A stretch of 32,000 nt of DNA, from assembly GCA_942493095.1 (NCBI GenBank), contig OW818675.1, positions 1,320,001 to 1,352,000 on the forward strand, in the 5' to 3' direction. The DNA is from Candidatus Electronema halotolerans. Lineage in GTDB: Bacteria > Desulfobacterota > Desulfobulbia > Desulfobulbales > Desulfobulbaceae. The notes beneath the pieces were generated by a model that worked only from the letters and a program-made list of their open reading frames with translations, did not search any database and had not been told where the DNA came from. A program made the position numbers and the translations under genes. Below are positions 8,312 to 31,464 of this stretch, piece by piece. Each line of letters opens with the position of its first letter. Within the stretch, counting starts at the first letter, position 1.

Positions 8312-8482
8312 TCAGTGGCTGCCCAAGGCGAAGATATTTTTTCGATCTTTGCCGGATGCGTTTTTCTGTGCAGGCGCGTCACCATTGCTGGTCAGAAGAA
8401 CTTTTGTCCGGGACTGCTGGCGTTCCGGCAGGTCGTAATAGGACAGAGAAAATTGCGGCGGTGTTGTGGTATTATTTTTCAT
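8312..8482 (-). CDS. small peptide A (56 aa), candidate RiPP precursor
   Basis: Hand translation: MKNNTTTPPQFSLSYYDLPERQQSRTKVLLTSNGDAPAQKNASGKDRKNIFALGSH*. Its ATG overlaps the stop of the upstream 1463-aa gene (ATGAAAAATAA, 8472-8482). Paralogous to peptide B. Not in the ORF track. Confidence 0.5.
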   Translation of the reverse strand: MKNNTTTPPQFSLSYYDLPERQQSRTKVLLTSNGDAPAQKNASGKDRKNIFALGSH

Positions 8483-12863: not shown

Positions 12864-14904
12864 CCAAGTACTTTAACAATTCTGACATATCAAGCATGTC
12901 GTTTATTTTTTTGTCATTACGTAACGCATTCACTAAATTAAAAAAATTTTCTTTAACCAGTGGATAAGTCGAGTATTTATTCAATATTATTTCAATTTCT
13001 TGGGCTGCATCTTTCCCTTCAGCTTTTGCTAAAAAAATCGTATGGTAAAATCGTTCTAAAACATTTTTTATCAGATCTAAATATCCTTCACTATCTTTTA
13101 CCCAAATATCGTACTTTTCAACTAAAACTTTTTGTATTTTTATGAAGTCATTTTTTTTATTTACCATGAAATGACGAATAAAAATATTATGGACTCTATC
13201 TTCTACGTTAAGGCATCCAAGATACATATTGACAAATATGTCTGTCTTTTTTTGAAACTCATTAATAATTTTTTCAAAATAAGTAATTTTTTTATTTTTA
13301 AAATTATCTTGGAAAGAATGGGAAAGAATAACTTTTAACACACCAGGTTCAATATATCGAAGCAAAGACAGATAAGGAAGGATTGTTTCTACTGACGGAG
13401 CATCTTGATCTAATTCAATTTTTCCAATTCTCTCTTTAAACACCTTGTCAATTAATATTTGAAGACAATCCTTGCAAAATTCTTCCTCATTTTTATTTTC
13501 AAATGGCAATGGACATCTAAATATATTGATAAAAACACAAAGGCATTCTTTAATAAGAGAAGGATAGCCTAAAGTTAGTTGATAAATTCTTTTCGAAATT
13601 CTTTCTTTATTCTTGCTATCAAATGACAACCTGTTGTAATCCAAGAAAAATTGAACAAGTTTTTTAATATCCTTTTCATTTAAACAATTTAACTGATTAT
13701 ATTCAATATTTTTTCTTATATTTTCATTTCTCCAATGTCTTTTTTTTTGGCCAGCAAAAACAAGAATAAAATTTTCTTTATGGAGCAAGGGTGCGAATAG
13801 TTGATCCTCCAGTTCATGAATTATATATTGGTCAGCATAATCAATATTGTCAAAACATATAACTATTTTACATGACAACGGGAGTTCGTTGAGACAATCT
13901 TTAAAAGATTCAATTAAGTAACTTTCATCATTCTCTCCTTCATTCTGTTTATATTTTTTTATTTCTTTCTTAAAGGAATCGAAGAAAATTCGATTTTCTT
14001 CCTTTTTGGTGAGAGAAAAGGCTATTTTTTCCAACACAGGATAAACATTGTAAGAAGAACGAGACAGTTCATACCCTTTAAAATCTATGTAACCGATCAA
14101 ATATCTTTCTTTTTCGACTGAAACTATGTAAAGAAAATACTGCAAAAGCCACGTTTTTCCAATTCCTTCATTTCCTGTGTATTCAAAAAGACATGTCTTT
14201 GATTTATATTCAGCAATAATATTGATTAAAGATATTTTTTCCTTCTCTCTATCAACAAACAAGTATAATAATTCTGAATCACAACAAGATGGCATTTCCT
14301 TTTTCTTTACAATTTTATATAATCCGTCCCAATGCTCCGCAACCCGATACAGCGGCATTGCCAATACTGTATCACGCTCTGCATTTTTTACTTTGTCGGG
14401 GTCAGTTGCTTGGGTCTGGATGGCAACTGCTGCTTGGAGATCAACACTAACAACAGCACTTCCACTATATCCTCCTTCACCTGTCTGCTTACTGTCAAGT
14501 TTCAAAAGATAGTCTTTGTTACAGTTGTAAACACCAATAAATGGGCCTTTTCCAGATGACATCTCGACAAGACTTTTGCCATAACCATAAAGTAAAAACT
14601 CCCCTTGTACGAATTTTGGAAGTTGTATATCGAGAGGATAACGATCTTCAATTTCAGTTTCTAACTGAAGTACTGCAAAATCAATCCTCTTTTCCTCATC
14701 ATATTTCCATGCAATTTTACGTGCTGTAAGGGAATGAGTATCTCCTGAAAATTTCACTTCAACAGTTTCAGGTGGGTTTGATTTTCCCAGCACATGACCA
14801 GCTGTAAGCAGATGTCCTCTATTGCTGATCAACCAAGCCGTGCCCTTGATTTTTTGCTCAATCAAAACGGCACAAGTCGCCTGCATAATTTTTTCATCGC
14901 GCAT
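12856..14904 (-). CDS. trypsin-like serine protease domain fused to P-loop (STAND/AAA-type) NTPase
   Basis: N-terminal catalytic triad context: LLTAGHVL (His), IDFAVLQL (Asp), GEGGYSGSAVV (Ser). Then Walker A GNEGIGKTWLL and Walker B KIVICFDNIDYAD, followed by an all-helical C-terminal region. Very AT-rich coding sequence. Confidence 0.85.
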   Translation of the reverse strand: MRDEKIMQATCAVLIEQKIKGTAWLISNRGHLLTAGHVLGKSNPPETVEVKFSGDTHSLTARKIAWKYDEEKRIDFAVLQLETEIEDRYPLDIQLPKFVQGEFLLYGYGKSLVEMSSGKGPFIGVYNCNKDYLLKLDSKQTGEGGYSGSAVVSVDLQAAVAIQTQATDPDKVKNAERDTVLAMPLYRVAEHWDGLYKIVKKKEMPSCCDSELLYLFVDREKEKISLINIIAEYKSKTCLFEYTGNEGIGKTWLLQYFLYIVSVEKERYLIGYIDFKGYELSRSSYNVYPVLEKIAFSLTKKEENRIFFDSFKKEIKKYKQNEGENDESYLIESFKDCLNELPLSCKIVICFDNIDYADQYIIHELEDQLFAPLLHKENFILVFAGQKKRHWRNENIRKNIEYNQLNCLNEKDIKKLVQFFLDYNRLSFDSKNKERISKRIYQLTLGYPSLIKECLCVFINIFRCPLPFENKNEEEFCKDCLQILIDKVFKERIGKIELDQDAPSVETILPYLSLLRYIEPGVLKVILSHSFQDNFKNKKITYFEKIINEFQKKTDIFVNMYLGCLNVEDRVHNIFIRHFMVNKKNDFIKIQKVLVEKYDIWVKDSEGYLDLIKNVLERFYHTIFLAKAEGKDAAQEIEIILNKYSTYPLVKENFFNLVNALRNDKKINDMLDMSELLKYLDE

Positions 14905-15568: not shown

Positions 15569-18500
15569 TCATTTCTTGTCAACAGTTACAATCCCTGCCT
15601 TGCCCCGCGCCCGGTACTCAGGACGGTACATAGCCTCAACCTCTGACGGCGGCAGGGCATAGCTGCCTGGCGTGACCGCCCGCACCAAATAGGCAAAGCT
15701 GAAGGGCCGCACTGGATTGTTGCGTGTCAAGGGCTTGAGCTGCTCTGTGTCAAAGGCAACCACAAAGCGGTCGTCCCGCGCATCCGTGTAGCGGAAGGAA
15801 CTGAGTTCGGGCAGCCAGTCAAAGGCCTCGGCATCTTTGCCGCTCACCGCCTTTTCGATTTCAAAGCCCGCAGGCAGCAGATCAATCAGCAGGGCGTGAT
15901 AATTGCCGCCCTCTTTGGCCTCGCCTTCAACCAGCACCACAGCCAGCTCGCTTTGCGGCACCTTGTCCAAGGCCAGCGGCTCGCCTGCACTGCTGTACCA
16001 AGTCCGTTGGATTGTGAAGCCATTTTCCATTGGCGGCGGCTCGTTGGTCGGCGCGCCCTGCACGGTGAGCACTGCCCAGACTGCGACCTGTCCCTTGTTG
16101 CGCAAGGTCACGGGCTGATCAAGCAACGTGTCTCCGCTGCGGCTGAGGGAGAAGAAAGAGGATTCTTTTTTCTCTGTTACCGCTGGAGCAGCTTCCTCTT
16201 TTGGCGTGTCACTCCCCAAATTCATGGCGGAAAGAAAACGGCCCAAAAGCGAAGGACTCTCCGCCTCTGGTTTATTCTCCTGCGGTGCCGGGCTGGCCTC
16301 GGTGATTTCCAAATCCAAGGGCTGGCCCTTGTCCAAGGTCAGAGCGGCCATGATCAGAGCGGCCTGCTCCTGAGTGGAGAAATACTTGCGCTTGGAAAGT
16401 TGGCCGGTCAGTTCCTGCCACGCCGAAGCCGGATCAACCTGCGTCAGGCCGGTCTCGTCGAGCACACTGATGATTGCAGCCAGATCACGCAGGCGGGAGC
16501 CGTAGCTCCACCATGAGGCAGCCTCTGTGTCTGCCGAGCGCAGAGCTGCTTGCAAGCCTTTCATTGCCCGTTCCTGATCGCCAAGCAAAGCCAAGGTGCC
16601 AGCAAGCTGGGCTTGCGCCAGCGGCGAGCTAATTTTGTCAAAGCGGGTGTCAAAGAGATAGCGGGCATCCTCATGCCGAGCTTGGCCAGCACGGGCCAGC
16701 ACCCAATGCGCGTAGGCCAGTGCCTCAAGATGTTTGTCCTTCCTGTCGCTGTGCTTGACCTCGTCTGTCAGCCAGTCCAAACCTTTTTTGTAGAAATAGT
16801 CTGGCACGGCAAAGCCTTTTTCCCGCGCTCGGCCAAGAAAGTCCATAGCATAAGCCGAAAGCCACGGCTCTTCGTCATCGCTGTCTGACCAGAGACCAAA
16901 GCTGCCCTCGCCGCGCTGCTTCTGCAAAATCAGGTCAATAGCCGCCTGCACCCGGTCAGGCAGATTTTTGTCCGCTGGATAGGCAAAGCGTTCGGCAAGC
17001 TGATTGGCGTAGAGCAGAGGCATGGCCCGGCTGGTGAGCTGCTCCAAGCAGCCGTGCGGGTAGCGGTCCAGCTCGCCGAGTAGCCCGGCCACATCAACAT
17101 TGGGCGCGCTGGAAATGCTGAGATCAACCTTGGCTGTGGCCGGATGCAGACCACTCAGGGTCTCCTTGTTCAGGGTGAGGACTGCGCCCGGCTCAATTTT
17201 GCTGTAGGTGCGGGTTAAGGTCGGCAGATATTTGCCGCGCACATTGAGATCAAAGTCGCCTGCATAACTGTAGCCTTGCGGGCCGTTGACGAGCAGATGC
17301 AGCTTGCCGCTGCCAATGCCGGAAGCAGTCACTGGAAAGCTGAGGCTCTGCCGCCTGCCCTGCTCAAGCTGGACAACTGCCGCGCTTTGCTCCGGGCCAA
17401 GCAGCGTTACCGCGCCTTCAGCCCGCCATGATGCCTGATACTGACCTGCCGGGCCGTCAATGTTTTCGATCAACACCTGAATGCTGGACTGGTCGCCGTC
17501 TGCCAGATAGCGCGGCAGAGACGGGGAGATGACCACTGGATCATTGACCCGCATGGCTTGACTGGCCGCGCCGGTCTTTTCCTTTGACCAGGCCACGGCC
17601 ATCAGGCGCAGCTTACCGTTAAAGTCCGGGATGTCTAACGGCACCGTGACTGTGCCGTCATCGCCTGCCCTGACCACGCCGGAGAAGAGGGAAACCACCT
17701 TCACATTGGACTGCGGCGCACCGCGCAGACCATCTTCGCCAGCACCGCTGCGCAGAGTGAGCGGCTTGCTGTTTGGCGGAATGATGAGCTGGCCGTACAT
17801 GTCGCGGATGTCAAGACCGAGCTGCTGCTTGCCAAAGAACCAGTCAATCGGATTTGGCGAGACAAACTGGGTCAGCTGCAAAACTCCTTCATCCACAGCG
17901 GCCAAGGTCAGATGGATTTCGCTGCCTGCCTCTGCCCCCTTGACTGCAACCGGCACTGGCAAGACCTGCCGGGGCCGGGTCTGCTCCGGCGCATTGACGG
18001 TCAGTTCCAACCGCTGCGGAGCCGGATCAACTGGCAGCCAGATCAGGCCCACAGCCCGGTCTGCGCCCTTCTGCTGCCCCTTGCCGGGCCGATAGACCGT
18101 GACCAAGGCATAGACACCCGCGCCCCAGCCGTCCTCAACCGGAATCTCAATGGTCTGCTCCTTGCCGCTCAAGGCGAAGTTGCGCAGCCCGTTCACTGTG
18201 GTGTTGGCCAAGACCAGACTGGCTTGCCCCGGATACGGCGAGGTCAAGGTCAGTTTGGCAATGTCGCCGACCTTGTAACTCTGCCGGTCAAGCACCACTT
18301 TGACCGAATCCGGGGTGTCGCTCTCGCCGACAAGTTGCTCGCCCGCAGTGAAGTGCAGGCTGGTGAGCAGGATATTGTCCTTGTTCAACAGCTCCAGCCG
18401 GTATCTGCCCCAGTCCGTCGCAACGGCCAGCGGCACTGGCCCGGCCTTATCCCAAGCAAGCTGGCCGCGCTGCGCCTCCTGATCAAGAACGATCTCCTCA

Positions 18501-20992
18501 TAGCCCCATTCACCATTCTTGATGAACCACTGATAATCAATATCCTCGCGCACCAGCCGCCAGTGCATTTCGCCTTTCTCCTGCGGTTGGCCCTGCTCGT
18601 TCAGGGCAATGATTGCAAATTTAGCCTCACTTTGCTCAGGGATCTGCAAATCAGCAAAGTCTGGCTTGAGGCCCAGATATTCCTTGAGATGACGAACAGG
18701 CACACTGGTGGTTGCGGTCACGGCCCTGCCGTCAATATCCAAAACATCAGCCCGCACCACAGCCTTGAGTGGCTGAAGGGTGTTGAGCGGCTGGCCAGCC
18801 AAAGTCAGGGGCAGGATGCCGTGTCCTTTTGCATCGGTACTGATGTCCGGCAGCTCAATCGCAGCCAGACCCGGTTCCTCCTTGTCTCTGCCAAAATAAA
18901 AATCAGCAAAATCGGCAAAAGGATGGGGTTCATAGTGCAGCTCCATATTGGCTTTGACACTCAAATCCGAGCCGGGCGAGCCGTAGTAGTAATCCGCCTG
19001 CACCTCGGCTTCAGCCTTGCCTGTCGCACTGAGAATGCCTTGCGGCTCCAGCCGCACTTCCAAGCGCGGCGGCTTGAAGGATTTGACCTCAAAGCTCGTC
19101 TGTCCGACCGGCTTGGCTTCCACATCCGCATACAGGGCGGCAGTCCAGTTGCCGGAGCGGGCAGAATTGGCCAGATTTATGGTGTCTGCATAGCCGCCCG
19201 CAGAGTCAGGCTGAAGCAGCCGTTCAAGTAGCACCTTGCCGTCCGGGCCGCTGACCCGCAGGGTCATGGGTGGGCAGGCAGCATAACGGGCAATGCGGTC
19301 GCGGACAATCGCGGTCAGATGCACGCTCTCGCCGGGCCGGTAGATGCCGCGCTCCGTATAGAGATAGGCATCAAGAGGGCCTGGCGCAGTTCTACCGCTC
19401 ACACCCCGGTCACTGAGATCAAAGGGAGCCTGTTCGAGTTGGAGAAAGGTGAAGCCGTGCTTGCTGTCCAGAGCCATGAGATGCACAGCCGCTTGGCCGC
19501 CTTTACCTTTGAGCAGGCCAGGGGCAAAACGGACTATGCCCTGCTCATCCGTGCTCAGATTAGCCAACGGCGTATTGTTCTTCGCGTACAGGCCGATCTC
19601 CAACCCGGTAATGGGCAGAGCGGTCTCCAAGCTGCGGGCCGCCACGGTAAGACCGTCGCTGCCCTGATAGGTGGTCAGGCCAATGTCTGTGACCACAATC
19701 CATTGGCTGGCTTGATCTTCCCAGCGGCGTTCGTCTTCGTCGCCATCCTTGCTCTGCTCGGCAGACAGCACGTACAAACCCGGCGCAACAGCCAAGACAT
19801 CCTGCGGCAGCACCACATTGCTGGTCATGATCTTGTCCTGCGCCGGACTGGGAATTTCCGTTCTGCCCTGCCAGACCTCCTCGCCGACCGTCTCCTGAAT
19901 TTGGTCGAGCTGATACCCGCTCAGTTTGCGGCGAAAGTTGTTTTGGACAAACTCGCCCAGGATGTTGCGCTCATGAATGCGGAAGAGCTGGAGCTTGACC
20001 TTCTCGACATTCACCGAGTTCAGGCCAATGCCCCGGCTGCTGCGGTCAGCCAGAATGTAGTCACTTTGATTAAACCAGAGCGCGGGCGGGCGATGGCCGG
20101 TTGTAACGGTCAGGGTCACAGTCTCCGGCAGGGTGCGATTCTCCACCTTCATGCCGCTGCGCACGGTCACTTTATAGGAAGTGCCCCAGTCAGCCCCGCT
20201 GATGCAAAGCTGTCTATATCTGACTGAAAAATCAGCATTGACAGCCGGGCTGATCTGAATGTAGTCGCCGTAATGAAAGCTGTCCGGCTTGGGCAGCTCC
20301 TCATTGAAGCGCAGACAGAGCTTGGGCAGACTGCTGTCATTGTCTGTCGAGGTGCTCTGCACCTTCAAGGCATTCTCGGCAAGCTGCTTCCGCCGCAGCT
20401 CGGCCAGCCGCCTCTCCCGCTCTTCTTTCTGCCGTTTTTTCTCAGCAGTCAGCTCCTCTTTCTGCTGCTGCCGCAGACTGTCCGCCTTGCCGCTGTCATC
20501 GCCCAATTCCGCCAGCTGCTCATACACAGCGATGGCGGCAGGAGTCCAGTTGTCCTGCACTGTGGTGCGTTTTTCCAAGGCTTTGCCGAGCAGGGCAAGG
20601 GCCTGCTTTTGCATGTCTGGAACATCTGCGGCCTGCCACGCCAGCCAGCTACTCCAGCTCGCCTTTGGCCATTCCCCGTCGCAGGCAGCCGCTTTGGCAA
20701 AGGAGAGCCAGAAGGCTGCGTCTGTATTTTCTCCCAGCAAGACGGCCTGTTTGTGCAAGGTCATGGCTGTATAGCATTGATCCGCAGCGGTCATGATTGC
20801 CGCCGCTTGCATGAGGATGGCGGCCTGTTCCGATTCAGGCGGGGATGTGCCGGAACGGGCGTATTCAACAGCAAATTTTTTGCTTTCCTGCTTTATGTCC
20901 TGAAGGCTGTGGTCCGCCGCAGCGGCCAGTGTGGACAAGGAGCAAAAGCAGAGCAGGAGGAAGACAGCGGCGGTGCGGATGACTGATTTCAT
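15569..20992 (-). CDS. bacterial alpha-2-macroglobulin family protein (thioester-containing, 1807 aa)
   Basis: N-terminal signal peptide (AAVFLLLCFCSLSTLAAAAD), a long array of MG-type beta domains, and the thioester motif YPHGCLEQ (CLEQ encoded at 17039-17050). Size and C-terminal receptor-binding-like domain are as in YfhM/ECAM-type proteins. Confidence 0.9.
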   Translation of the reverse strand: MKSVIRTAAVFLLLCFCSLSTLAAAADHSLQDIKQESKKFAVEYARSGTSPPESEQAAILMQAAAIMTAADQCYTAMTLHKQAVLLGENTDAAFWLSFAKAAACDGEWPKASWSSWLAWQAADVPDMQKQALALLGKALEKRTTVQDNWTPAAIAVYEQLAELGDDSGKADSLRQQQKEELTAEKKRQKEERERRLAELRRKQLAENALKVQSTSTDNDSSLPKLCLRFNEELPKPDSFHYGDYIQISPAVNADFSVRYRQLCISGADWGTSYKVTVRSGMKVENRTLPETVTLTVTTGHRPPALWFNQSDYILADRSSRGIGLNSVNVEKVKLQLFRIHERNILGEFVQNNFRRKLSGYQLDQIQETVGEEVWQGRTEIPSPAQDKIMTSNVVLPQDVLAVAPGLYVLSAEQSKDGDEDERRWEDQASQWIVVTDIGLTTYQGSDGLTVAARSLETALPITGLEIGLYAKNNTPLANLSTDEQGIVRFAPGLLKGKGGQAAVHLMALDSKHGFTFLQLEQAPFDLSDRGVSGRTAPGPLDAYLYTERGIYRPGESVHLTAIVRDRIARYAACPPMTLRVSGPDGKVLLERLLQPDSAGGYADTINLANSARSGNWTAALYADVEAKPVGQTSFEVKSFKPPRLEVRLEPQGILSATGKAEAEVQADYYYGSPGSDLSVKANMELHYEPHPFADFADFYFGRDKEEPGLAAIELPDISTDAKGHGILPLTLAGQPLNTLQPLKAVVRADVLDIDGRAVTATTSVPVRHLKEYLGLKPDFADLQIPEQSEAKFAIIALNEQGQPQEKGEMHWRLVREDIDYQWFIKNGEWGYEEIVLDQEAQRGQLAWDKAGPVPLAVATDWGRYRLELLNKDNILLTSLHFTAGEQLVGESDTPDSVKVVLDRQSYKVGDIAKLTLTSPYPGQASLVLANTTVNGLRNFALSGKEQTIEIPVEDGWGAGVYALVTVYRPGKGQQKGADRAVGLIWLPVDPAPQRLELTVNAPEQTRPRQVLPVPVAVKGAEAGSEIHLTLAAVDEGVLQLTQFVSPNPIDWFFGKQQLGLDIRDMYGQLIIPPNSKPLTLRSGAGEDGLRGAPQSNVKVVSLFSGVVRAGDDGTVTVPLDIPDFNGKLRLMAVAWSKEKTGAASQAMRVNDPVVISPSLPRYLADGDQSSIQVLIENIDGPAGQYQASWRAEGAVTLLGPEQSAAVVQLEQGRRQSLSFPVTASGIGSGKLHLLVNGPQGYSYAGDFDLNVRGKYLPTLTRTYSKIEPGAVLTLNKETLSGLHPATAKVDLSISSAPNVDVAGLLGELDRYPHGCLEQLTSRAMPLLYANQLAERFAYPADKNLPDRVQAAIDLILQKQRGEGSFGLWSDSDDEEPWLSAYAMDFLGRAREKGFAVPDYFYKKGLDWLTDEVKHSDRKDKHLEALAYAHWVLARAGQARHEDARYLFDTRFDKISSPLAQAQLAGTLALLGDQERAMKGLQAALRSADTEAASWWSYGSRLRDLAAIISVLDETGLTQVDPASAWQELTGQLSKRKYFSTQEQAALIMAALTLDKGQPLDLEITEASPAPQENKPEAESPSLLGRFLSAMNLGSDTPKEEAAPAVTEKKESSFFSLSRSGDTLLDQPVTLRNKGQVAVWAVLTVQGAPTNEPPPMENGFTIQRTWYSSAGEPLALDKVPQSELAVVLVEGEAKEGGNYHALLIDLLPAGFEIEKAVSGKDAEAFDWLPELSSFRYTDARDDRFVVAFDTEQLKPLTRNNPVRPFSFAYLVRAVTPGSYALPPSEVEAMYRPEYRARGKAGIVTVDKK

Positions 20993-21126: not shown

Positions 21127-22710
21127 CTATTTCCGCCAGCGACTGACCGCCAGCTCCAGTTTTTGAAGAAAAACTTTCAGCTCAGGAGAAGCATTGAGCT
21201 GGAGCAGCTTGCGTACAACCAAACGCAAAAAGTCTTCCTCTTGATATTGAAACTCGCGGGCCAAGTCATACATCATATTTTTATAGATGTTGCCGGGCTT
21301 GTCCGCAGCATTGCTGTATGCCTGCTGAATTTTTTGCATTGTGGTTACAATCAGCTCACCCGCCTCGCTGCGTTCCATAAGTTCGCCGACTTGCTGCTTG
21401 TTTGCTTCCAGAGCTTTCCAGAGAAATGGTTCCGGGCCAGATTCACCGGGGAGAAAAAGCGGCTCAATCAGAAACCCGCCGAATTCCTTTGCCTCCGCCC
21501 GCAGCGTCCCGTCTAAATTACGGGCATCGCCATCCAAGACAAAAAGAGTGCTGTCCAACTGCCCAACTTTGCCGAAGGCGCGGACATGTTCGGCAAACTG
21601 ATTTTTCCCAGTATCAGTTCCAATCAATATATCGTTGGTATGCAAGCCAAGTTTTGGCATCAGCACATCCATGCAGCCATGCAGCACGGCTTTGGCTTCC
21701 GAGTCCTCACAAATAATGCTGAGTTTGTTCAATGCCTGACCGTACAGCACACGTTGCAGCACATCTTGATAGGCAGGCTTGAGCACAACATTCCGATAAT
21801 CACTGCTGCGCTCCAAAAAAATGCGGGCCTCTCTGGGAACAGATTCCAGCACTGCCGGACTGTGGGATGTGACCACGATCTGCAAATCGTTGCGCAAGGC
21901 CAGCCGTTGCAGCTCAAGCATGAGCTGCTGCTGCGTGTAAGGATGCAGGCCAGCCTCCACTTCGTCAATCAGCACCAAGGTGTTTTGAAGATTCGAGAGC
22001 TGCATGGAAAGCCGCAAGATAGTCCGCTCGCCTGATGACATGTGAAACTCGGAATAGCGTCCGCTGGCATCCGACCGTTCCGCCACCAGCAGGTCGCGTC
22101 CTCCAGAAATTATTTTGTTCATCCGCACATATTTAAAAGGCAGCACATTTTGGGCAAAGGCTATCAGGTCTGCGGTCACCTCCTGAATTTTTTCATATCT
22201 GGCACCTATGTTCAATACACTCCGCACTTCGCCGGGATTGGAGAGATTGGCCAATGTGCGCACAATCACTTCGCGTTGAGGCTGACGGACTCCCTTTTTC
22301 CCCTGAAAATTTGGATTCCATCCCTTTGTCAGCCGCCGCCAAGTCATTGGCAGCGGTCCCGAAGGAGTGTTGAACAGGTAGCTGATTTCAGCTTTAGTTA
22401 TTTGGTCGTCCAAGTCTTCCCCGCCATCTGTCCTCCTGTTTCTGAAGTTGGGAAAAAGCGTGGCAGGCTTAAAATCACGCAACCCGGAACCGGGCACATC
22501 ATACGCGCAGGCCAAAGCCATCAGCACGGTCGTCTTGCCACAGGCATTTGGTCCTGCCAAGACAGCAACCGGATAATTGAACTCAATGATCAAGTCTTCA
22601 ATACCGCGCAAATTTTTAATCCGAACCTGCCGGAGCATATCCTGCTGCGGATTTCTTTTTCCTCTCAACTGATCCCAAATCTGCTCTAAATTACGCTGCA
22701 AGGAAGACAT
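21127..22710 (-). CDS. OLD-family / PARIS-like ABC-type ATPase fused to a Toprim-like nuclease domain
   Basis: Walker A AGPNACGKTT, ABC signature-like MSSGERTILRL, Walker B LVLIDEVEAGLHP, and a His-loop region VTSHSP. The C-terminal region has Toprim-like acidic motifs: IICEDSEAK (Glu) and LFVLDGDARN (DxD). Confidence 0.65.
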   Translation of the reverse strand: MSSLQRNLEQIWDQLRGKRNPQQDMLRQVRIKNLRGIEDLIIEFNYPVAVLAGPNACGKTTVLMALACAYDVPGSGLRDFKPATLFPNFRNRRTDGGEDLDDQITKAEISYLFNTPSGPLPMTWRRLTKGWNPNFQGKKGVRQPQREVIVRTLANLSNPGEVRSVLNIGARYEKIQEVTADLIAFAQNVLPFKYVRMNKIISGGRDLLVAERSDASGRYSEFHMSSGERTILRLSMQLSNLQNTLVLIDEVEAGLHPYTQQQLMLELQRLALRNDLQIVVTSHSPAVLESVPREARIFLERSSDYRNVVLKPAYQDVLQRVLYGQALNKLSIICEDSEAKAVLHGCMDVLMPKLGLHTNDILIGTDTGKNQFAEHVRAFGKVGQLDSTLFVLDGDARNLDGTLRAEAKEFGGFLIEPLFLPGESGPEPFLWKALEANKQQVGELMERSEAGELIVTTMQKIQQAYSNAADKPGNIYKNMMYDLAREFQYQEEDFLRLVVRKLLQLNASPELKVFLQKLELAVSRWRK

Positions 22711-23311: not shown

Positions 23312-25189
23312 ATGGCATCACGTGATTTAGAGATTATCAAGAAAATAGAAAAAGAACTGAATCAGAATCTGCGCAGAGTTGATAAACTTGGATCAAAACG
23401 CTTCTGTTATATTGCTGATGAGCAGGATCAAGTCACCGTCCTGCGGTTAAGTGAAGCTGGTCTCGCCAATTCTAATATATATTTTCATCTCTTTAAAGAG
23501 CTTACTAATCTTAAAACATTCGATCTAAGCTTTAATCAAATCAATGATATTTCCTTTCTCAAAGACATGAGCTATCTTCAGACGCTCAATTTAAGTCTCA
23601 ATCAGATCAGTGATGTCTCCTCTCTGAAAGAACTCTATCATCTTAAAACTCTTAATTTAAGTTCAAATCAAATTAGCGATATTTCATTTCTCAAAGATAT
23701 TGTCCATCTTCAGTGGCTAAATTTAAGTTTTAATAAGATCAAAGATATTTCATTTCTCAAAAATCTTATCCAACTTCAGACACTCAATTTATGGAATAAT
23801 CAGATCATCCGCTTGCCGGAATGGATTACAGAGTTGTTCCCTGAGATTGTCTGTTCTGATTATTTTGAAGTTTACAAAATCAACGTCGGTAATAATCCCC
23901 TGACCCATCCGCCGCCAGAAATCATCAACCAAGGCCGCGAAGCCATCCGCGCCTATTTCCGCTCCTTTGAAAAAAGCGAAGCTGTCAAATTGCACGAATC
24001 CAAAGTGCTGCTGGTTGGCGACGGCAAGGCCGGAAAAACCTCGCTGCTCAAACAGTTCCAAGGACTGGACTTTGATGAGCATGAATCCCAAACCCACGGC
24101 ATAAATGTCCAGCCGCTTTCAGGCAGTGAGATAGCAGGTTTTGCCAATCCTGACCAAGACTGCCGCCTCCATTTCTGGGATTTCGGCGGGCAGGAAATCA
24201 TGCACGCCTTGCACCGCTTCTTCATGAGCAACCGCTCGCTGTACATCCTTGTCTTGGACAGCCGCGACGACACTGGCAGATGCTGCTGGCGTTGGCTCCG
24301 GCACATTGAGAAGTACGGCGGCCAGTCGCCGCTCATCGTGGCCATGAACAAGATTGATGCCAACCCGTCCTTCAATCTCGAACAGAAGAGCATCAATGTC
24401 CGTTTCTCTCAGATCGAAAACCGCTTCTTCCGCATCTCTTGCAAAAATAAGGACGGCCTGCCGGAATTAGTGCGCAGCATGGCCGCATCTGTGCCGAAAA
24501 CTCCGCTGTACGGCTTTGAAATCAGCAAAGCATGGCTGGAAATCAGGAAACAGCTCGAAGCGGCAACCGGCGCGCAGAACTATATCAGCCAGGAGCAGTT
24601 CATTGCCATCTGCAAAGAACACGGGGTTGAGGACGAGACAAGCCGAATCACCCTCCTCAAGCTGTTCAATGACTTGGGTACCTTGCTCTTTTTCGAGCAG
24701 ATAAAACTGGCTGACATTTATGTCCTTGATCCGCACTGGGTGACGGTCGGGGTCTATAAAATCATCAACTCAGCCCGAACCAAGGACGGAATCCTGCACG
24801 AGGAGGATTTGGATTTCATCCTCAAGCAGGAGGATATCCGCTGCGATGAATATGACCCGGCCAAAGAGAAATGCTTTACCTACACCGTCCAAGAGCAGGC
24901 ATATCTTGTCCGCATCATGGAGGAGTTTGAGCTGTGCTACCGCTATGACAAGCATCAGCATATTCTGCCCAATCAGCTTCCCAAGGAGCCGGAACAGGAA
25001 CCAAAGCTGACAGGTGAACATCTGCTCGGCTTTGTCATGGAATATGACTATCTGCCTTCTTCGTTCTTTTCCCGCCTCATGGTCCGCTTGAAGGAAGATA
25101 TTCCAGACCGGCGGCGGCAGTGGCGGTACGGGATGTATCTCGAAAACAAGCAATTCGGCGTGGAAGCAATTATAGCGGTTTCGTATTGA
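23312..25189 (+). pseudogene. Roco-family protein (LRR - Roc GTPase - COR), 5' part, interrupted by IS630 element at 25172/25173
   Basis: Six to seven ~22-aa LRRs (LxxLNLSxNQIsDISFLKxL). Roc G-domain motifs: G1 GDGKAGKTS, G3 WDFGGQE, G4 NKID. COR-like region follows. The reading frame runs into the IS and stops after 6 IS-derived codons. Confidence 0.85.
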
Positions 25190-26217
25190 ACAGATATCAA
25201 ACCCAGCAATGACGGAAAAACGATTTGATTGATTTTGACTTAACCGTTTTCAGAGATATATCATAAGCTTCCATCAGCTCACGCTCTGTTCTCGGCTTCA
25301 ATTTTCTTATAGTGTTTTTCATTACTGACCAGCAGTATTCAATAGGGTTCAGTTCAGGACGATAAGGAGGGAGGAAAATGATCTTCGCTCCTGTACTTCT
25401 GATCAAAGCGAGAGCTTCTTTGTTTTTATGAGGACTGGCATTGTCAAGAACGACTGTCTTGCTGCTGTCAAGATATTTCAAAAGATAATTTTTTATATAG
25501 AAATAAAAGACATCTCCTGTCATGGTGCCTTTAAATTTCATGCACTTCAATATTTTTCCAAACTTTACAGCTCCTATCATGCTTATTCTTTTCCCTTTAC
25601 CTGAAGGTCTTTTTGAAAAAGCTCTTGTTCCTTTTCTTGATCTTGCAAATTTTCTCGACATGTTCAAACAGCATCCTGTCTCATCAATAAAGATGAAATT
25701 CTTTTTGTCAGCCTCGAGCAGGCCTGCAAGGTAATTAACTGTCTTTGCTATATTTTCCTCTTTATACGCCGCCGGATCGCGGAAAGTTTTTTTTTCCGGC
25801 TGATTTTCAGTCTGGCGAGAGTTTCGCACAGCGTGGAAGGTGCTATTTTTAAATTGAATTTCTCGTATAAGCGATCACACATCTCTTCAAGCGTAAGATC
25901 GTTCTCGTCATCAATCATGCTGGTCAGAAAAGGCATATGAACTTCCTTGATTTTCGGAGGATTTCCGCCTTTATGAGGCTTCGGCTCAAGCGTCCCCTCA
26001 GTCTTCCATCTTTTTACAAGACTTTGAACAAATTTATAGGAAACGTCAAGCAAATCTGCAGTTCTTCTCAATGATTTCTGTTTTTCATAAACAGACAAGA
26101 CTTTCTTTCTGAAATCAATAGAATAAATCATGGCAGACCTCCGTGTGTAAAAAAATGGAAAAAACAGACAAGTCAAGTTTAATCTTTTTCTGATAACCAT
26201 ACAACCTGAAACCGCTA
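25173..26217 (-). mobile_element. IS630/Tc1-mariner family insertion sequence
   Basis: Imperfect terminal inverted repeats both start TAGCGGTTTC (25173-25182; reverse complement of 26208-26217). Flanked by a TA duplication (25171-25172 and 26218-26219), the hallmark IS630 target. Encodes an HTH plus DDE transposase in two overlapping frames. Confidence 0.9.
25197..26131 (-). CDS. IS630 family transposase (two frames joined by a putative -1 frameshift at the A9 run)
   Basis: ORFa starts MIYSIDFRKK at 26131 (GGAGG upstream) and contains the HTH region. ORFb has DDE motifs IFIDETG, VVLDNASPHK and PPYRPELNPIEYCWS. ORFb is in the -1 frame relative to ORFa. They overlap around CGG AAA AAA AAA C (T-run 25787-25795 on the plus strand). 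A slip gives ...LKISRKKK-KTFRDPAAYKEE... Confidence 0.85.
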
Positions 26218-26219
26218 TA

Positions 26220-27001
26220 TCAGGATGCAGGAGCAGGCAAACAGGATTACAATCAGCATTCAAGGCGGGCTGCACAGCAAAAGGCAGTATCTGGCTGTGA
26301 TCCGAGACGCTATTTCAAGACTTGGCTTTCAGGAGCTGAAACCGAAAGAGCTGGTTGAATTGCCCGGACATCCTGATACATTTGTAGAGTATGAAGAGCT
26401 GCTCGGTTATAAGCGGGCCGGAAGAGATGAATATTTTCACGGGAGATTAGGGAAGGCTTTCTCTGTCTCTGAACTGTTGGATAGTGTTGTCAGTAAGGAA
26501 GAACGAATAAAGGAAGGGAGAAATGTTATGAGTGTATCATTTAACAATATTGGCAATCCGCAGGTGCATCAGAATGTGCATCAAACCAACACGCAGACGA
26601 ACAGCCAGCAGCAGTCTGTTGATTTGCTCAATCAACTCAGAGAAGCGCACGGGCTGTTCCGCAATCTGAAAGAAGATATCCTTGCAGAGGCGGATATTGA
26701 AATCGAGGATGAAAAGGAAAAGAAACGGGTTCAGAATGAGCTGGACAAGGCGGAAAAGGCCCTGACTGAGGCGGAAAGCGCGGCTGAACAGGGAAAGGAA
26801 CTGGATGCTGCGACAAAAAGCCGCTTGGAGGAATTCTTCACCAGCCTTGCCGACAAAAGCTCCCGCCTCGGCAAAGCCTTGGAATTTGTTGATCAAGGAA
26901 CAAGAAAGATGCAGGAACTGGCCCGGACGTATAACAAGGTTGCGGCAAACATCGGCCTGCCTGCTGTGCCGCCGCTCCTGCTGGGGCAGGAGAAGGAATG
27001 A
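26220..27001 (+). pseudogene. Roco-family protein, 3' part (COR C-terminal segment plus Q/N-rich and coiled-coil tail)
   Basis: Removing 25173..26219 (the IS plus one TA) joins ...GVEAII to RMQEQANRITISIQGGLH... in frame. The ITISIQGG...LAVIRDAISRL segment looks like COR-B. Confidence 0.8.
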
Positions 27002-27903: not shown

Positions 27904-30900
27904 CTACGAGCAGCGCGAATAGCCGCAGTCGCGGCAAACCTCGCAGCCTTCGGTATAGACCAAGGTGCCGCAGCATTCCGGGCAGGAGGAGGTGAAGCCC
28001 TTCTGGGTTCCGGCCATGAACGATTTCAGCAGCCTGCCAAGCTGGGCAGGCAGATCGAGTCTATGGCCGCTGGAGCGGTCGAGCTGGCGGATGATCTCCT
28101 CCATCGGAATCTGATAGCGCAGGGCCAAGGAGACCAAGCGGCAGGTGGTGGTCCACATGGTGGATTTATCCTTCAAATCCAGCCGATTGTCAAAAGGAAA
28201 CTTGGCAAAGACCTCCATCGGGTTTTCCTTCTCGTCAAAGCAGACAATCAGATAAATCGAATTGCCGTCCGCATCCTTGAGTCGGTAGCGTTTCGCGTCA
28301 AGGACATCAGGCAGCTCTTTCTTCTGTAGCTCGCCTTGGCTGGAAACTGTGGCCGTCTTTTTGGCGGCAGAAGCGACAGTGCTGAGAACTTGGCCATCTC
28401 GCGAGCCGTCCCGATAGACTGTCAGACCCTTGCAGCCCAGCTCAAAACCGAGCTGATAAGAGAGGCGCACATCCTCTTTGGTGGCGGTCGAGGGCAGGTT
28501 GATGGTCTTGCTGATTGAGGAATCCACGCCATTTGTCTGGAGTGTTCCCTGCATTTTAATATGCTCTTCAGGAGCAATATCTTGAGCAGCCCGGAATATG
28601 CGCTGCCATTTCTCCGGGATTTCCGCCTGACCGAGCACCGTGCCGCACTGGGCCACCTTCCGCATCAGCTCTTCAGAGAAGAAGCCTTCCCGCTTGGCCA
28701 CACTCTCAAAATGTTTGTTGATCATCAGGAATCGGTCGTTGTCCATGACGTTTTTTTCTGTCACCACGGAGAAATACGGCTCGCAGCCAGAGGCGCAGTC
28801 GGCAATCATCGAGACCGTGCCAGTCGGCTGAATTGAAGTCAGAGCCGCGTTGCGCCGGGCCGTGTAATGGTTGTGCTGCGCATCCCAAGCCGGGAACGGC
28901 CCTTTCAGCTCGGCCAAGGCAATGGAGGCGGTTTCAGCCTCGTCACGGATGAAGCGCATGACCTTGGCGGCAGCGCAGCGGCCCTCCTCGTCGCCGTAGG
29001 ACAGCTCCTGCTGGATGAGCATATCGTGCAGGCCCATGATGCCAAGACCAATCTTGCGGGTCTTGCAGGTCATCTCGGCAATTTCCGGGATTGGGAAACG
29101 GTTGCAGTCAATGACGTTGTCCAAAAAGCGCACTGCTGTCCGCACGGTCTGGCTGAGGCGCGGGTAATCCACCGCCCCATCCTTGACGTACTGGCCCAGA
29201 TTTATTGAACCTAAATTGCACGATTCCATCGGAAGCAAAAATTGCTCGCCGCACTGAGGTGTGTTTATATAAAAATAACAACACGTTTCGTTGATTTTGC
29301 CAGAAAAGTGCCCGATGTAAAAGTTGTGAAATTCGTCAACCGTGCCGTTGTACACATCCTCAACTCCGTCGCGCTCAACCGAGACCACCCGATGGTTGAA
29401 GGTTTGAGCAGATTCCTTCAAGGCCTTAAAGGTCGGGAAACCGAATTTTGTCCCCAATCGCTTTGAAACGCCTTGATCTGCACAACGATTCTCCCAGTCT
29501 GTTTTCCACGGAGTTTGCCCCTGTTCAAATTGCAGATCAAGAAAACACTTCACCTGCTGCCGTTTAGTTTCTTCCGCTTTGGCAGCATACGTTGAATGGA
29601 TGCTTGCTGTAATTTTTTCCCGCATTGAGTGACTGCTGTTATGCCAAACAAAATAGCAGGGCTTGGAACAGAAAGATTGTTCACGTCTGCTCCAAGATAC
29701 GGCGTATAAATTGCCGCAATGTTCACAGCGGCGTTCAACCATGACACTGTTGCCGTCCAGAAAACAGCGCAAGTCAGTCATGGCTTGACATTCTGCCAGC
29801 TTTTGCTGCGCACGCTGTTGTATGTACTCTAATAAATTATCTTTATTGGCAGCAATGCCTTCTTTTACCAGAGCGGCATGGCGGGCACGATATGCTTCAT
29901 CTTGGAAGCGGAGTTTTGTTGTCGCACCAATCCGTTTTTTCGTTTCTTTGCTTCGCTTTGCCCCAACATGATGCTTGAGGCGGAGTTCCTGCTGCTTGAC
30001 CGGATCGTTCATCCAGTTCTTTTCCGGAAATCGCCGCATCGGATTGTTGTCTCCCTTACGGTCTTCCGCATGCAGCCTGTTGTGTGCAGCTTGACTCATC
30101 ACTTCAAGATTTGCTGGATCGTTGTTCAATCCATTGTAATCACAATGATGAACTACTTCGTTTTGCCCCAAATTCCTGCCAGTCTGTTGTCGATGGTGGA
30201 AATTGGCTATCAGTCGATGTTCAATTTGCCATTTTGGTTTATCTGTTGTAGATAACCAACGATAATATTGAGAAGAATTTTTCTTGAACTGAGCTTCACG
30301 TCTGGTCATCAGGCTCAGACTATCACCATGCAGCAGGTCTTTTGCCTCTTTGACACTGCCGTCAGAAAGCACGAAACGATGATTTTCCGTCACTCTCACG
30401 CTGTTGCCATCATCAAGGGTGACTTTCACAAGCTGTTTGCCATACCCGGTGATGCGTGGATTGCGCATCATCCGCACTGAAGCACCGCCTTTGCTGTTGC
30501 GGCAGAAGACTGGCACATCCTTTCCCTCTTCAGCAAGTTCACGGATGCTTACTGCTCCTCGGCCATCAGCTACGGCAACAAGTGTTTCACCGGCCAGACA
30601 AGGATTCGTGGCCTCAAATTCGCCAAGTTGCGGCGTGGCATTCGCCCGATTGGCCGCGTCTATGAACAGAACACCTGGCTCGCCGTTGTGCCATGCCAGA
30701 TCAACAATCTTGTCAAAAACCTTGGCTGCGTTCATCCGGCAGACTGTTTTGCGGTTGGAAGGGTCAATCAGATCGTATTCCTGATTGTTTCTCGCCGCTT
30801 CCATGAACTTGTCCGTGACTGCCACAGAGAAGTTGAAATTGGTGAACTTGCTCTGATCCTGCTTGGCCGTGATGAAGTCCATGATGTCAGGATGATCGAC

Positions 30901-31464
30901 CCGCAGGATGCCCATGTTGGCCCCGCGCCGCTTGCCGCCCTGTTTGATGGTCTCTGTGGCTGCGTCAAAGACCGCCGCAAAACTGAGCGGCCCGGAAGCC
31001 ACGCCTTGCGTCGAGCGCACTGCTGAATTTTTCGGACGCAGCCGGGAGAAGGAATAGCCAGTGCCGCCGCCGGTCTTATGCACCAGCGCGCCATGATGGA
31101 TGGAGGTGAAGATGCCGTCCATCGAATCCTCGACCGGCAGGACAAAGCAGGCCGAGAGCTGGCCAAGATCAGTGCCCGCGTTCATCAGGCAGGGCGAGTT
31201 GGGGAGAAAATCAAGATGATAGATCATGCGGAAGAACTGCTCGCGCAGCGTCTCGTAGTCTTCCATGCCGCTGTCCACACCCGCGACCGCATCCGCCACC
31301 CGGCGGCAGAGCGATTCCCAGTTTTCCAGCACATTGCCCTGTCCATCCTTGAGGTAGTAGCGGCGGCTCAGTACGGTCTCAGCGGTCTCTGTCAGGAGCT
31401 GTCTGGCAATGCTCCTTGTCATGTCTTTCCCCATTTTTTTCCCTTTTTGAGCTGTGATCAACAA
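27904..31464 (-). CDS. nrdJ: adenosylcobalamin-dependent (class II) ribonucleotide reductase, intein-containing
   Basis: N-terminus ...ETVLSRRYYLKD, PNSPCLMNAG, SACFVLPVEDSM, and the catalytic loop ATNP-C...CGEQFLLPMESCNLGSINL split by a 449-aa insert. C-terminal Cys-rich zinc ribbon CPECCGTLVYTEGCEVCRDCGY. The true start is more likely Met11 (31434) or Met15 (31422) than 31464. Confidence 0.92.
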   Translation of the reverse strand: MLITAQKGKKMGKDMTRSIARQLLTETAETVLSRRYYLKDGQGNVLENWESLCRRVADAVAGVDSGMEDYETLREQFFRMIYHLDFLPNSPCLMNAGTDLGQLSACFVLPVEDSMDGIFTSIHHGALVHKTGGGTGYSFSRLRPKNSAVRSTQGVASGPLSFAAVFDAATETIKQGGKRRGANMGILRVDHPDIMDFITAKQDQSKFTNFNFSVAVTDKFMEAARNNQEYDLIDPSNRKTVCRMNAAKVFDKIVDLAWHNGEPGVLFIDAANRANATPQLGEFEATNPCLAGETLVAVADGRGAVSIRELAEEGKDVPVFCRNSKGGASVRMMRNPRITGYGKQLVKVTLDDGNSVRVTENHRFVLSDGSVKEAKDLLHGDSLSLMTRREAQFKKNSSQYYRWLSTTDKPKWQIEHRLIANFHHRQQTGRNLGQNEVVHHCDYNGLNNDPANLEVMSQAAHNRLHAEDRKGDNNPMRRFPEKNWMNDPVKQQELRLKHHVGAKRSKETKKRIGATTKLRFQDEAYRARHAALVKEGIAANKDNLLEYIQQRAQQKLAECQAMTDLRCFLDGNSVMVERRCEHCGNLYAVSWSRREQSFCSKPCYFVWHNSSHSMREKITASIHSTYAAKAEETKRQQVKCFLDLQFEQGQTPWKTDWENRCADQGVSKRLGTKFGFPTFKALKESAQTFNHRVVSVERDGVEDVYNGTVDEFHNFYIGHFSGKINETCCYFYINTPQCGEQFLLPMESCNLGSINLGQYVKDGAVDYPRLSQTVRTAVRFLDNVIDCNRFPIPEIAEMTCKTRKIGLGIMGLHDMLIQQELSYGDEEGRCAAAKVMRFIRDEAETASIALAELKGPFPAWDAQHNHYTARRNAALTSIQPTGTVSMIADCASGCEPYFSVVTEKNVMDNDRFLMINKHFESVAKREGFFSEELMRKVAQCGTVLGQAEIPEKWQRIFRAAQDIAPEEHIKMQGTLQTNGVDSSISKTINLPSTATKEDVRLSYQLGFELGCKGLTVYRDGSRDGQVLSTVASAAKKTATVSSQGELQKKELPDVLDAKRYRLKDADGNSIYLIVCFDEKENPMEVFAKFPFDNRLDLKDKSTMWTTTCRLVSLALRYQIPMEEIIRQLDRSSGHRLDLPAQLGRLLKSFMAGTQKGFTSSCPECCGTLVYTEGCEVCRDCGYSRCS
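29254..30600 (-). mobile_element. intein (449 aa) with HNH-type endonuclease module inserted at the RNR catalytic Cys
   Basis: Begins CLAGETLVAV (block A) and has TENH (block B). HNH motif VVHHCDYNGLNNDPANLEVMSQAAHNRLH (about 30070-30153). CxxC...FCSxxC zinc-finger-like segment. Block F-like VYNGTVDEFHNFYIG. Followed by extein CGEQ. A sampled 60-nt line inside is 45% GC versus 62% in the flanking extein (hand counts at 29581 and 28981). Confidence 0.8.

Follow-up and report, generated by a model that had tools for sequence, protein, structure and literature searches.

The nrdJ gene in a stretch of 32,000 nucleotides from the cable bacterium Candidatus Electronema halotolerans (contig OW818675.1, positions 1,320,001 to 1,352,000; hereafter the window) encodes a ribonucleotide reductase (RNR) whose catalytic loop, ATNP|CGEQ, is split directly before the thiyl-radical Cys by an intein that ends in Pro-Gln instead of His-Asn, and the question arises whether such an insert can still be removed. 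An earlier note on this DNA imagined three answers, namely that it is (i) a rare Gln-terminated intein; (ii) an intein that splices at an Asn-Thr pair three residues upstream and leaves TPQ in the active-site loop; or (iii) a splicing-dead remnant, which would make this nrdJ non-functional. Based on the comparative sequence and structure analyses described here, we consider it highly probable that the insert is a class 1 intein that is functional and has been mobile in the recent past, and that it belongs to a large family whose members insert directly on the N-terminal side of the thiyl-radical Cys of RNRs, in this case in the NrdJ of a cable bacterium.

The nrdJ precursor gene lies at 27904-31434 on the minus strand, as do all parts of it that are discussed below, and is predicted to encode 1176 amino acids from a likely ATG at 31434 to a stop codon at 27904-27906, while an alternative, longer open reading frame that starts with a TTG at 31464 (27904-31464, minus) would give 1186 amino acids. 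Pfam and NCBIfam profiles identify the product as a class II, adenosylcobalamin-dependent RNR, with a score of 673.7 bits for TIGR02504 (NrdJ; cut-off 399.95) and an RNR barrel profile that is covered in full (1-523 of 523) by an alignment bridging a large gap at the insert. It is inside this gap that the matches to an intein splicing domain and to HNH_3 are found, and orthologues from Ca. Electronema align with the gene product end to end. The N-extein (30601-31434) ends with GEFEATNP and aligns to the solved NrdJ of T. maritima (1XJE/1XJK) up to STNPC322; the intein (29254-30600; 449 amino acids, residues 289-737 of the 1186-residue frame) runs from CLAGETLV to FYINTPQ and has a GC content of 47% vs 57% in the exteins; and the C-extein (27904-29253) continues through the TSCPD domain to a Cys-rich tail. 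The junctions read EATNP|CLAGETLV on the N side and FYINTPQ|CGEQFLLPMESCNLG on the C side, which places the insert directly before Cys322 of the T. maritima enzyme. As such, the +1 Cys (TGC, 29251-29253) would act both as splicing nucleophile and, in the mature enzyme, as the thiyl-radical Cys. The comparison with 1XJE/1XJK further shows that LSAC(134)F, TNPC(322)GE including the Glu of CGE, and EAC(333)NLGS are kept, so that the host protein is predicted to possess the thiyl Cys, the redox Cys pair, the Asn and the Glu of a class II NrdJ.

The position and extent of the intein given in the earlier note are thus borne out to the nucleotide, and an alignment with intein-free orthologues, named there as the check that could overturn it, returned the same extein boundaries with no extra residues and restored no canonical HN|C junction. 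Different boundaries can be discarded, as the alignments with the T. maritima NrdJ and with the intein-free allele described below fix NP|C…Q|C. With a Cys at both junctions, a shift by one residue (NPC|L…QC|G) would be formally possible, but it is chemically meaningless. A canonical HN|C end hidden by a frameshift was also rejected, since the other two reading frames of 29230-29345 contain either a stop codon or no His-Asn-Cys.

The N-terminal splicing lobe (30280-30600) comprises blocks A and B, matches TIGR01445 (intein_Nterm, E = 8.8e-9) as well as DnaB and DnaE inteins in the PDB, and looked intact to the earlier note: Cys1 (30598-30600) and the Thr and His of the block B motif TENH (30379-30390) are invariant in 70 out of 70 aligned inteins. 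The C-terminal lobe (29254-29397; NHRVVSVERDGVEDVYNGTVDEFHNF) consists of block F, a spacer and block G. Block F has His at position 13 (F:13) and Asn, not the usual Asp, at position 4 (F:4), where Asp, Cys and Trp are the common residues (PMC4031507), and from our point of view this Asn represents a variant that should be no bar to membership in class 1. A class 3 intein was considered and rejected, as the N-terminal nucleophile is not missing and F:4 is Asn, where the Trp-Cys-Thr triplet of that class would place its Cys. Block G lacks the His-Asn pair and ends instead with Pro (CCT, 29257-29259), a residue that is rare in the family at position -2, and Gln (CAG, 29254-29256), the residue that we propose to cyclise; functional inteins with a terminal Gln, and many without a penultimate His, are on record (PMC4031507). 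The other features of a class 1 intein are present, namely Cys1, the TxxH of block B, a Cys at +1, and a host sequence that is restored to its conserved form by removal of the insert. Regarding the spacer, the 22 residues that had been counted after DEFHNFYIG do follow HNF, where the Ssp DnaB intein has 9, whereas only 19 follow DEFHNFYIG. The spacer is modelled as an extended F-G β-hairpin (29257-29325; NFYIGHFSGK, a turn, and ETCCYFYINTP), which exceeds its counterpart in DnaB-type inteins by about 13 residues.

Whether these deviations are peculiar to the window copy can be judged from its relatives. A search with the intein found 82 of them, and all that reach the C-terminal junction are alike in having a long spacer after VYNGTVDEFHNF, an end of the form [YF][IV]N[NV][LR]Q|CGE or N|CGE, and no penultimate His. 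When a profile of the C-terminal region was searched against 1.84 billion cluster representatives, the family amounted to 1336 clusters (50% identity) at E <= 1e-3 and 489 at E <= 1e-10. A scan of GTDB with one genome per species yielded 80 loci, and in each of the 69 that carry a complete intein the insertion site is NP|C…|CGE. For a census of the junction we pooled 260 distinct homologous sequences from all searches. The terminal residue is Gln in 144 and Asn in 116 of them and nothing else, such that a [Q/N]|Cys junction is found in 260/260. At the penultimate position Leu (89), Arg (69) and Lys (38) together account for 196 sequences, while His occurs once and Pro three times, in the window intein, in P0038 and in a Taylorbacteria genome (L070); with 17 different residues, this position is the most variable of the block. 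By comparison, F:4 is Asn in 249 sequences (Thr 8, Ser 2, Asp 1), F:13 is His in 259 of 260, and the distance from VYNGTV to the end is 34-35 residues in 210 of 260 (34 in the window intein). A short spacer combined with a VLVHN|C end is confined to one member, the same that alone has Asp at F:4. When 70 complete inteins were placed on a neighbour-joining tree with the junction residues left out, parsimony required at least 13 changes between Gln and Asn, some of them among Deinococcus species and some among Pyrinomonadaceae; within the cable bacteria, the relative P0274 (Ca. Electrothrix sp. EH2) ends with NNLN|C.

The census and the repeated switches on the tree together suggest that Gln and Asn are functionally interchangeable in this family, with Gln being the commoner of the two. 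By the same comparison, the Gln end, the absent penultimate His and the long F-G spacer are to be regarded as family-wide traits and not as decay of the window copy. Of the three answers imagined in the earlier note, the Gln-terminated intein is hence the best supported, although "rare" does not apply to an end that is the majority state. Two further regularities were observed among the 260 junctions: Gln ends favour Leu at -2 (69 of 144) and Asn ends favour Lys or Arg (63 of 116), and neither Lys nor His ever occupies the terminal position, despite being single-step intermediates between Gln and Asn codons.

In the 70-sequence alignment, 104 columns are conserved to 85% or more among the 69 sequences other than the window copy, and the latter shows the consensus residue at all of them. 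They cover Cys1, Thr and His of the TENH motif, the VYNGTVD…H core, the four Cys of a zinc-ribbon-like element and the HNH residues. The junction aligns without gaps, and two positions alone set the window copy apart from its nearest relatives there: -3, where Thr replaces Asn or Val, and -2, where Leu has given way to a Pro whose CCT codon is one nucleotide away from the Leu codon CTT. Against four cable-bacterium homologues, the ratio of nonsynonymous to synonymous substitution rates (dN/dS) is 0.08-0.11 for the whole intein, of similar order in most parts including the endonuclease, and 0.02-0.07 for the exteins; these values are rough since dS is saturated, and several pairs gave none for the C-terminal lobe, the hairpin segment or the exteins.

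An AlphaFold2 model of the intein, made with a 64-row alignment from the search hits, reached a pLDDT of 88 and a pTM of 0.73. In this model the F-G spacer is a long β-hairpin with strands at model residues 432-442 and 445-454 (pLDDT 93-96), and the second strand reaches Pro-2, such that the terminal residue, Gln, sits where the strand stops, an arrangement also seen in ordinary inteins. All 41 matches that Foldseek returned from the PDB at E <= 1e-3 are inteins or intein-like (BIL) domains, with Ssp and Npu DnaB, DnaE, RecA, PI-PfuI and the NrdJ-1 split intein at the top; target-normalised TM-scores reach up to ~0.78 and are 0.5-0.63 for the best-ranked matches. According to this model, the window intein thus has the HINT fold. 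The sequence profile of the family matches DnaB and DnaE inteins as well and aligns the family Asn opposite the F:4 Asp of DnaB.

Between the splicing lobes, at ~29400-30280, resides a putative homing endonuclease module that the earlier note had correctly assigned to the HNH type rather than to LAGLIDADG. Its nuclease core (VHHCDYNGLNNDPANLEVMSQAAHNRLH, 30070-30153) matches eight HNH families of PHROG (best E = 3.8e-15, range to 1e-5) and Pfam HNH_3 at E = 1.2e-4 with 22.1 bits, which is under the cut-off of 24.8, while scans with Pfam and PHROG found no LAGLIDADG match in the window intein. Conservation reaches 90% or more in the columns HH…D…NN…N…H…H of the 70 aligned inteins, and the nested module accordingly carries what appear to be the residues of an HNH ββα-metal motif (His-His…Asn…His). 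The CxxC…FCSxxC segment recognised in the earlier note (CEHCGNLYAVSWSRREQSFCSKPC, 29656-29727) is a four-Cys zinc-ribbon-like element in which all four Cys are invariant or nearly so in the same 70 inteins; it is modelled as β-hairpins with a pLDDT of 95-97 and is presumably the DNA-binding part of the endonuclease. No Pfam family, including the FCS and TRASH-type fingers, matched this region even at E = 10.

The closest relatives of the locus are from cable bacteria, namely Candidatus Electronema spp. and Ca. Electrothrix gigas, and compared with Electronema NrdJ the exteins are 86-96% and the inteins 73-79% identical. When the predicted spliced product (727 amino acids) was used as query, a protein from another contig, P0223, ranked above the protein that the window itself encodes (P0088). 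P0223 lacks an intein and has 727 amino acids, which is exactly the length expected from precise excision; this NrdJ is 98.9% identical and aligns without a gap over EATNPCGE. It is encoded on contig L081, and contig L082, from a second run, is likewise without the intein. At the DNA level, L081 and the window are 100% identical over 566 bp upstream of the gene and, relative to the junction, at -834 to -236 and at +282 to +1350, whereas the 47 nucleotide differences are all confined to positions -235 to +281. Of this tract of ~520 bp, the upstream half (30601-30835) holds 18 and the downstream half (28972-29253) 29 of the differences, which are densest from +9 to +30. If they were placed uniformly, the chance of finding all 47 inside the tract would be ~1e-34.

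The confinement of the differences to this tract and the identity elsewhere indicate gene conversion centred on the intein site. The conversion could equally represent homing with co-conversion of the flanks or precise loss of the intein by recombination with another allele, and the observation that the window tract is only 1-2% nearer to the Electronema alleles than the tract of the intein-free allele is not decisive for gain or loss. Judging from the two alleles, we are hence dealing with a recent gain or loss of the intein by gene conversion. A presence/absence polymorphism at one site (L081 and L082 vs the window) together with converted flanks is what homing would be expected to leave behind.

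The target site of the intein-free allele deserves a separate remark. At nucleotides 2339-2366, corresponding to 29223-29250 of the window, L081 carries the unusual sequence CGELPLLPLEAC, where other cable bacteria read CGEQ[WF]LLP[YM]ESC (TGTGGAGAGTTGCCGCTTTTGCCACTGGAGGCG in L081 vs the usual CGEQWLLPYESC), and this stretch of 28 nucleotides is too divergent for blastn to align. One could speculate that L081 represents an allele that is resistant to the endonuclease.

Taken together, these observations allow a scheme to be proposed from conserved residues and from published work on other inteins. Splicing would start with an N-to-S acyl shift at Cys1, aided by Thr71 and His74 of block B, and proceed by trans-thioesterification to Cys+1, the later catalytic Cys. 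The terminal Gln449 would then cyclise to an aminoglutarimide and thereby release the intein, and an S-to-N shift would finally yield the native ATNP-CGEQ loop. Gln-ended inteins are known to splice via cyclisation of Gln, although slowly in the PolII inteins of P. abyssi (Pab) and Methanoculleus marisnigri (Mma) (PMC4031507), and descriptions exist of the part played by the block F His and of an aminoglutarimide as the product (PMC8175363). In the present family, an active-site variant composed of the F:4 Asn, the F-G hairpin longer by ~13 residues and the missing penultimate His would render Gln and Asn interchangeable at the end. Homing into an intein-free nrdJ would be carried out by the putative HNH nuclease, the zinc ribbon and a helical region between the splicing lobes, and would co-convert ~250 bp of flank on each side.

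Several points nevertheless weigh against a functional intein. We found no splicing or nuclease assay for any member of its sequence family, the penultimate Pro is rare (3/260), and the dN/dS of ~0.1 is rough on account of the saturated dS. Since the alleles are identical outside the tract, the insertion may also be very recent, in which case the conservation of the exteins is no proof of long-term splicing. Lastly, no second RNR was found, and this absence is established within the 32-kb window only. Of these points, the rarity of the Pro and an insertion that may be too recent for extein decay to be visible would be in line with a splicing-dead remnant, in which the exchange of Leu for Pro at -2, along with that of Asn for Thr at -3, has abolished C-terminal cleavage, leaving nrdJ non-functional and the cell dependent on another RNR. 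However, the open reading frame of 3.5 kb is unbroken, all 104 conserved columns are kept (including Cys1, TxxH, F:4 Asn, F:13 His, the terminal Gln and Cys+1), the residues of the HNH and zinc-ribbon parts are intact, dN/dS is low, and there are signs of very recent mobility. The suspicious Pro, moreover, resides at the position of the block that tolerates 17 residues, and a Pro-Gln end has evolved independently on two further occasions, in P0038 and in the Taylorbacteria L070. We therefore regard a dead remnant as very unlikely. The proposed cut at Asn-4|Thr-3 (YIN|TPQC) fares even worse. It would offer a canonical Asn and a Thr nucleophile, the window does have this pair three residues upstream of the junction, and HMMER can indeed align NTPQC to the STNPC of the T. 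maritima NrdJ. But a conserved nucleophile is lacking, as -3 is variable in the census (N 126, T 71, S 29, V 18 of 260) and -4 is Asn in 167/260, while the [Q/N]-Cys pair is never lost; the closest relatives end with INNLQ|C or INVLQ|C and have no Thr; Asn and Thr are located within the last β-strand of the AlphaFold2 model; and TNPCGE stands uninterrupted in the intein-free allele and in 108 orthologues that lack an intein, such that a TPQ left in the catalytic loop can practically be dismissed.

A different matter is the possibility that the intein splices slowly or conditionally, with the Gln end, the Pro at -2, the Cys1/Cys+1 pair and two Cys in the hairpin tying NrdJ maturation to redox state or temperature in the manner of a post-translational switch. 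This is compatible with a functional intein, and it is suggested by the slow splicing of the Gln-ended Pab and Mma PolII inteins, by the rarity of Pro at -2, and by the requirement of the Pab PolII intein for reduction of a Cys1-Cys+1 disulfide (PMC4031507, PMC8175363), given that the window intein combines Cys1 and Cys+1 with a CC pair in its hairpin. However, the hairpin Cys are not conserved among cable bacteria and are absent from L002 and L013, which speaks against a conserved redox-switch Cys in the hairpin. The free interchange of Gln and Asn also argues against a special cost of Gln in the family, and the RNR intein of Chilo iridescent virus performs better with Gln than with Asn in the account quoted by PMC4031507. 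We consider a regulatory delay of this kind rather improbable.

The functional, mobile class 1 intein that we favour can be compared with several known systems. The Chilo iridescent virus intein (CIV RIR1) is of the LAGLIDADG type and has a normal short F-G spacer, and its host is a class I RNR of a eukaryotic virus. In the section of PMC4031507 that cites Amitai et al. (2004), this intein is stated to splice, and to do so more efficiently with Gln than with Asn. The PolII inteins of P. abyssi, P. horikoshii and Methanoculleus marisnigri resemble the window intein in being class 1 with Cys1, Cys+1, a terminal Gln that gives an aminoglutarimide, and a residue other than Asp at F:4 (Ser in Pab PolII) (PMC8175363, PMC4031507). 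They differ in their host, DNA polymerase II, in being mini-inteins without an endonuclease, in keeping the penultimate His, and in being slower with Gln than with Asn, and in the Foldseek comparison they are weak structural matches to the model (5BKH at rank 36, 2LCJ at rank 48). The closest solved structures by both profile and fold are the Ssp and Npu DnaB and DnaE inteins (1MI8, 6FRG, 4O1R, 1ZDE), with which blocks A, B and F align, but these end with VHN or AN, have Asp at F:4 and a short F-G turn, and carry no HNH module.

With regard to the insertion site, inteins before the thiyl-radical Cys of RNRs share with the window intein the host family, the NP|CGE point and the catalytic Cys at +1, and they are spread over bacteria and archaea in full-size and mini forms; this point is the most frequent one for RNR inteins (PMC2677866). 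It is probably the "rir1-b" allele of InBase and of Soucy et al. (PMC4071816), an equation that is our own. The site is, however, common to unrelated intein lineages, and the same allele does not imply the same intein family. The NrdJ-1 split intein from ocean metagenomes (8UBS; Foldseek rank 21) has the HINT fold and is likewise located in NrdJ beside the catalytic Cys, but its insertion point lies one residue closer to the C-terminus (PMC2677866), it occurs naturally in split form, and its endonuclease is encoded by a free-standing gene where the window intein has a nested HNH module. Precedent thus exists for every single element, namely the insertion site, HNH inteins, Gln ends and the missing penultimate His. 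For the combination of F:4 Asn, long hairpin, absent G:6 His and free exchange of Gln and Asn we found no description in the searchable literature, in which the family motif VYNGTVD returned nothing either, and this combination may be undescribed. We would go one step further only tentatively. It is conceivable, if doubtful, that the family represents a mechanistic sub-type of class 1 in which the F:4 Asn and the hairpin that is longer by ~13 residues stand in for the F:4 Asp and the penultimate His, with glutarimide and succinimide formation being equally efficient. Such a sub-type would explain the at least 13 swaps between Gln and Asn, despite two substitutions being needed and no Lys or His intermediate being seen.

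The distribution of the family suggests that the intein itself travels. Compared with L006 and L009, metagenome-assembled genomes of Actinomycetota and "Deltaproteobacteria", the intein is 65% identical while the exteins are only 41-58% identical, which points to horizontal spread. Among 50,697 phage records only distant matches to the intein (<40% identity) were found, and a literature search on RNRs of cable bacteria returned nothing relevant. Competition for the site is also apparent. Of the NrdJ orthologues, the closest 119 comprise 108 that have TNPCGE and no intein and 4 that carry the same intein type as the window, whereas 6 have an unrelated intein with a YVHN|C end and 1 has a third type that starts with Ser1 and ends with ITGN|C, both at the NP|C site; on these sequences, three intein types appear to compete for one site in one bacterial group. 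The seven proteins with the two other lineages (P0225, P0259, P0266, P0270, P0277, P0284 and P0287) are 77-94% identical to the spliced product and all have a precomputed match to LAGLIDADG_3 (PF14528), and the inteins of the YVHN|C lineage comprise 373-375 amino acids. The NrdJ of L013 (Ca. Electrothrix gigas, QYLO01000006.1) has, besides the Gln-ended intein at NP|C, another large intein that is unrelated to it and resides at KTGGG|TGYSF.

Outside of nrdJ, an Rfam scan of the whole window, in which a B12 riboswitch or other RNA upstream of the gene was sought, gave no match. An IS630-family element (HTH 25748-26275 and DDE_3 25197-25829, both minus) splits a gene for an LRR-Roc-COR GTPase (23312-27001), whose upstream piece (23312-25189) stops at position 50 of the COR-B profile and whose downstream reading frame (26225-27001) resumes at position 54. 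Together with an IS66-family transposase (DDE_Tnp_IS66, zf-IS66) at 1239-2747, this element marks a transposon-rich region of the genome. An AAA_21/AAA_15 ATPase (21127-22710, minus) matches the candidate defence family HEC-04 of PADLOC (E = 3.8e-37) and, more weakly, the AriA, PtuA and GajA ATPases, and may be part of an anti-phage system. At 8472-14904 (minus), the gene for a STAND-like protein of 1463 amino acids (AAA_16 and TPR) overlaps by 8 bp with the end of that for an upstream protein of 682 amino acids with a trypsin-like peptidase domain, neither of which has a PADLOC match, and a bacterial alpha-2-macroglobulin of 1807 amino acids (15569-20992) adjoins this pair. Finally, a radical-SAM/SPASM protein (6893-8125, minus) weakly matches prokaryotic viperin models (pVip, E = 1.5e-11) and is not an activase of the NrdG type according to Pfam.

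Overall, the window intein leaves the current understanding of protein splicing unchanged. Its nrdJ should, on the predictions presented here, be annotated as a functional intein-containing gene and not as a pseudogene, and the mature enzyme would have an unaltered catalytic loop. At this RNR site, a Gln end is what most members of a very large family show, a family that has its own active-site variant and that would offer many natural Gln/Asn pairs for the study of the cyclisation step. The pair of intein-plus and intein-minus alleles at the strain level, with its tract of ~520 bp, further serves as a natural illustration that inteins have been mobile in uncultured cable bacteria in recent times.

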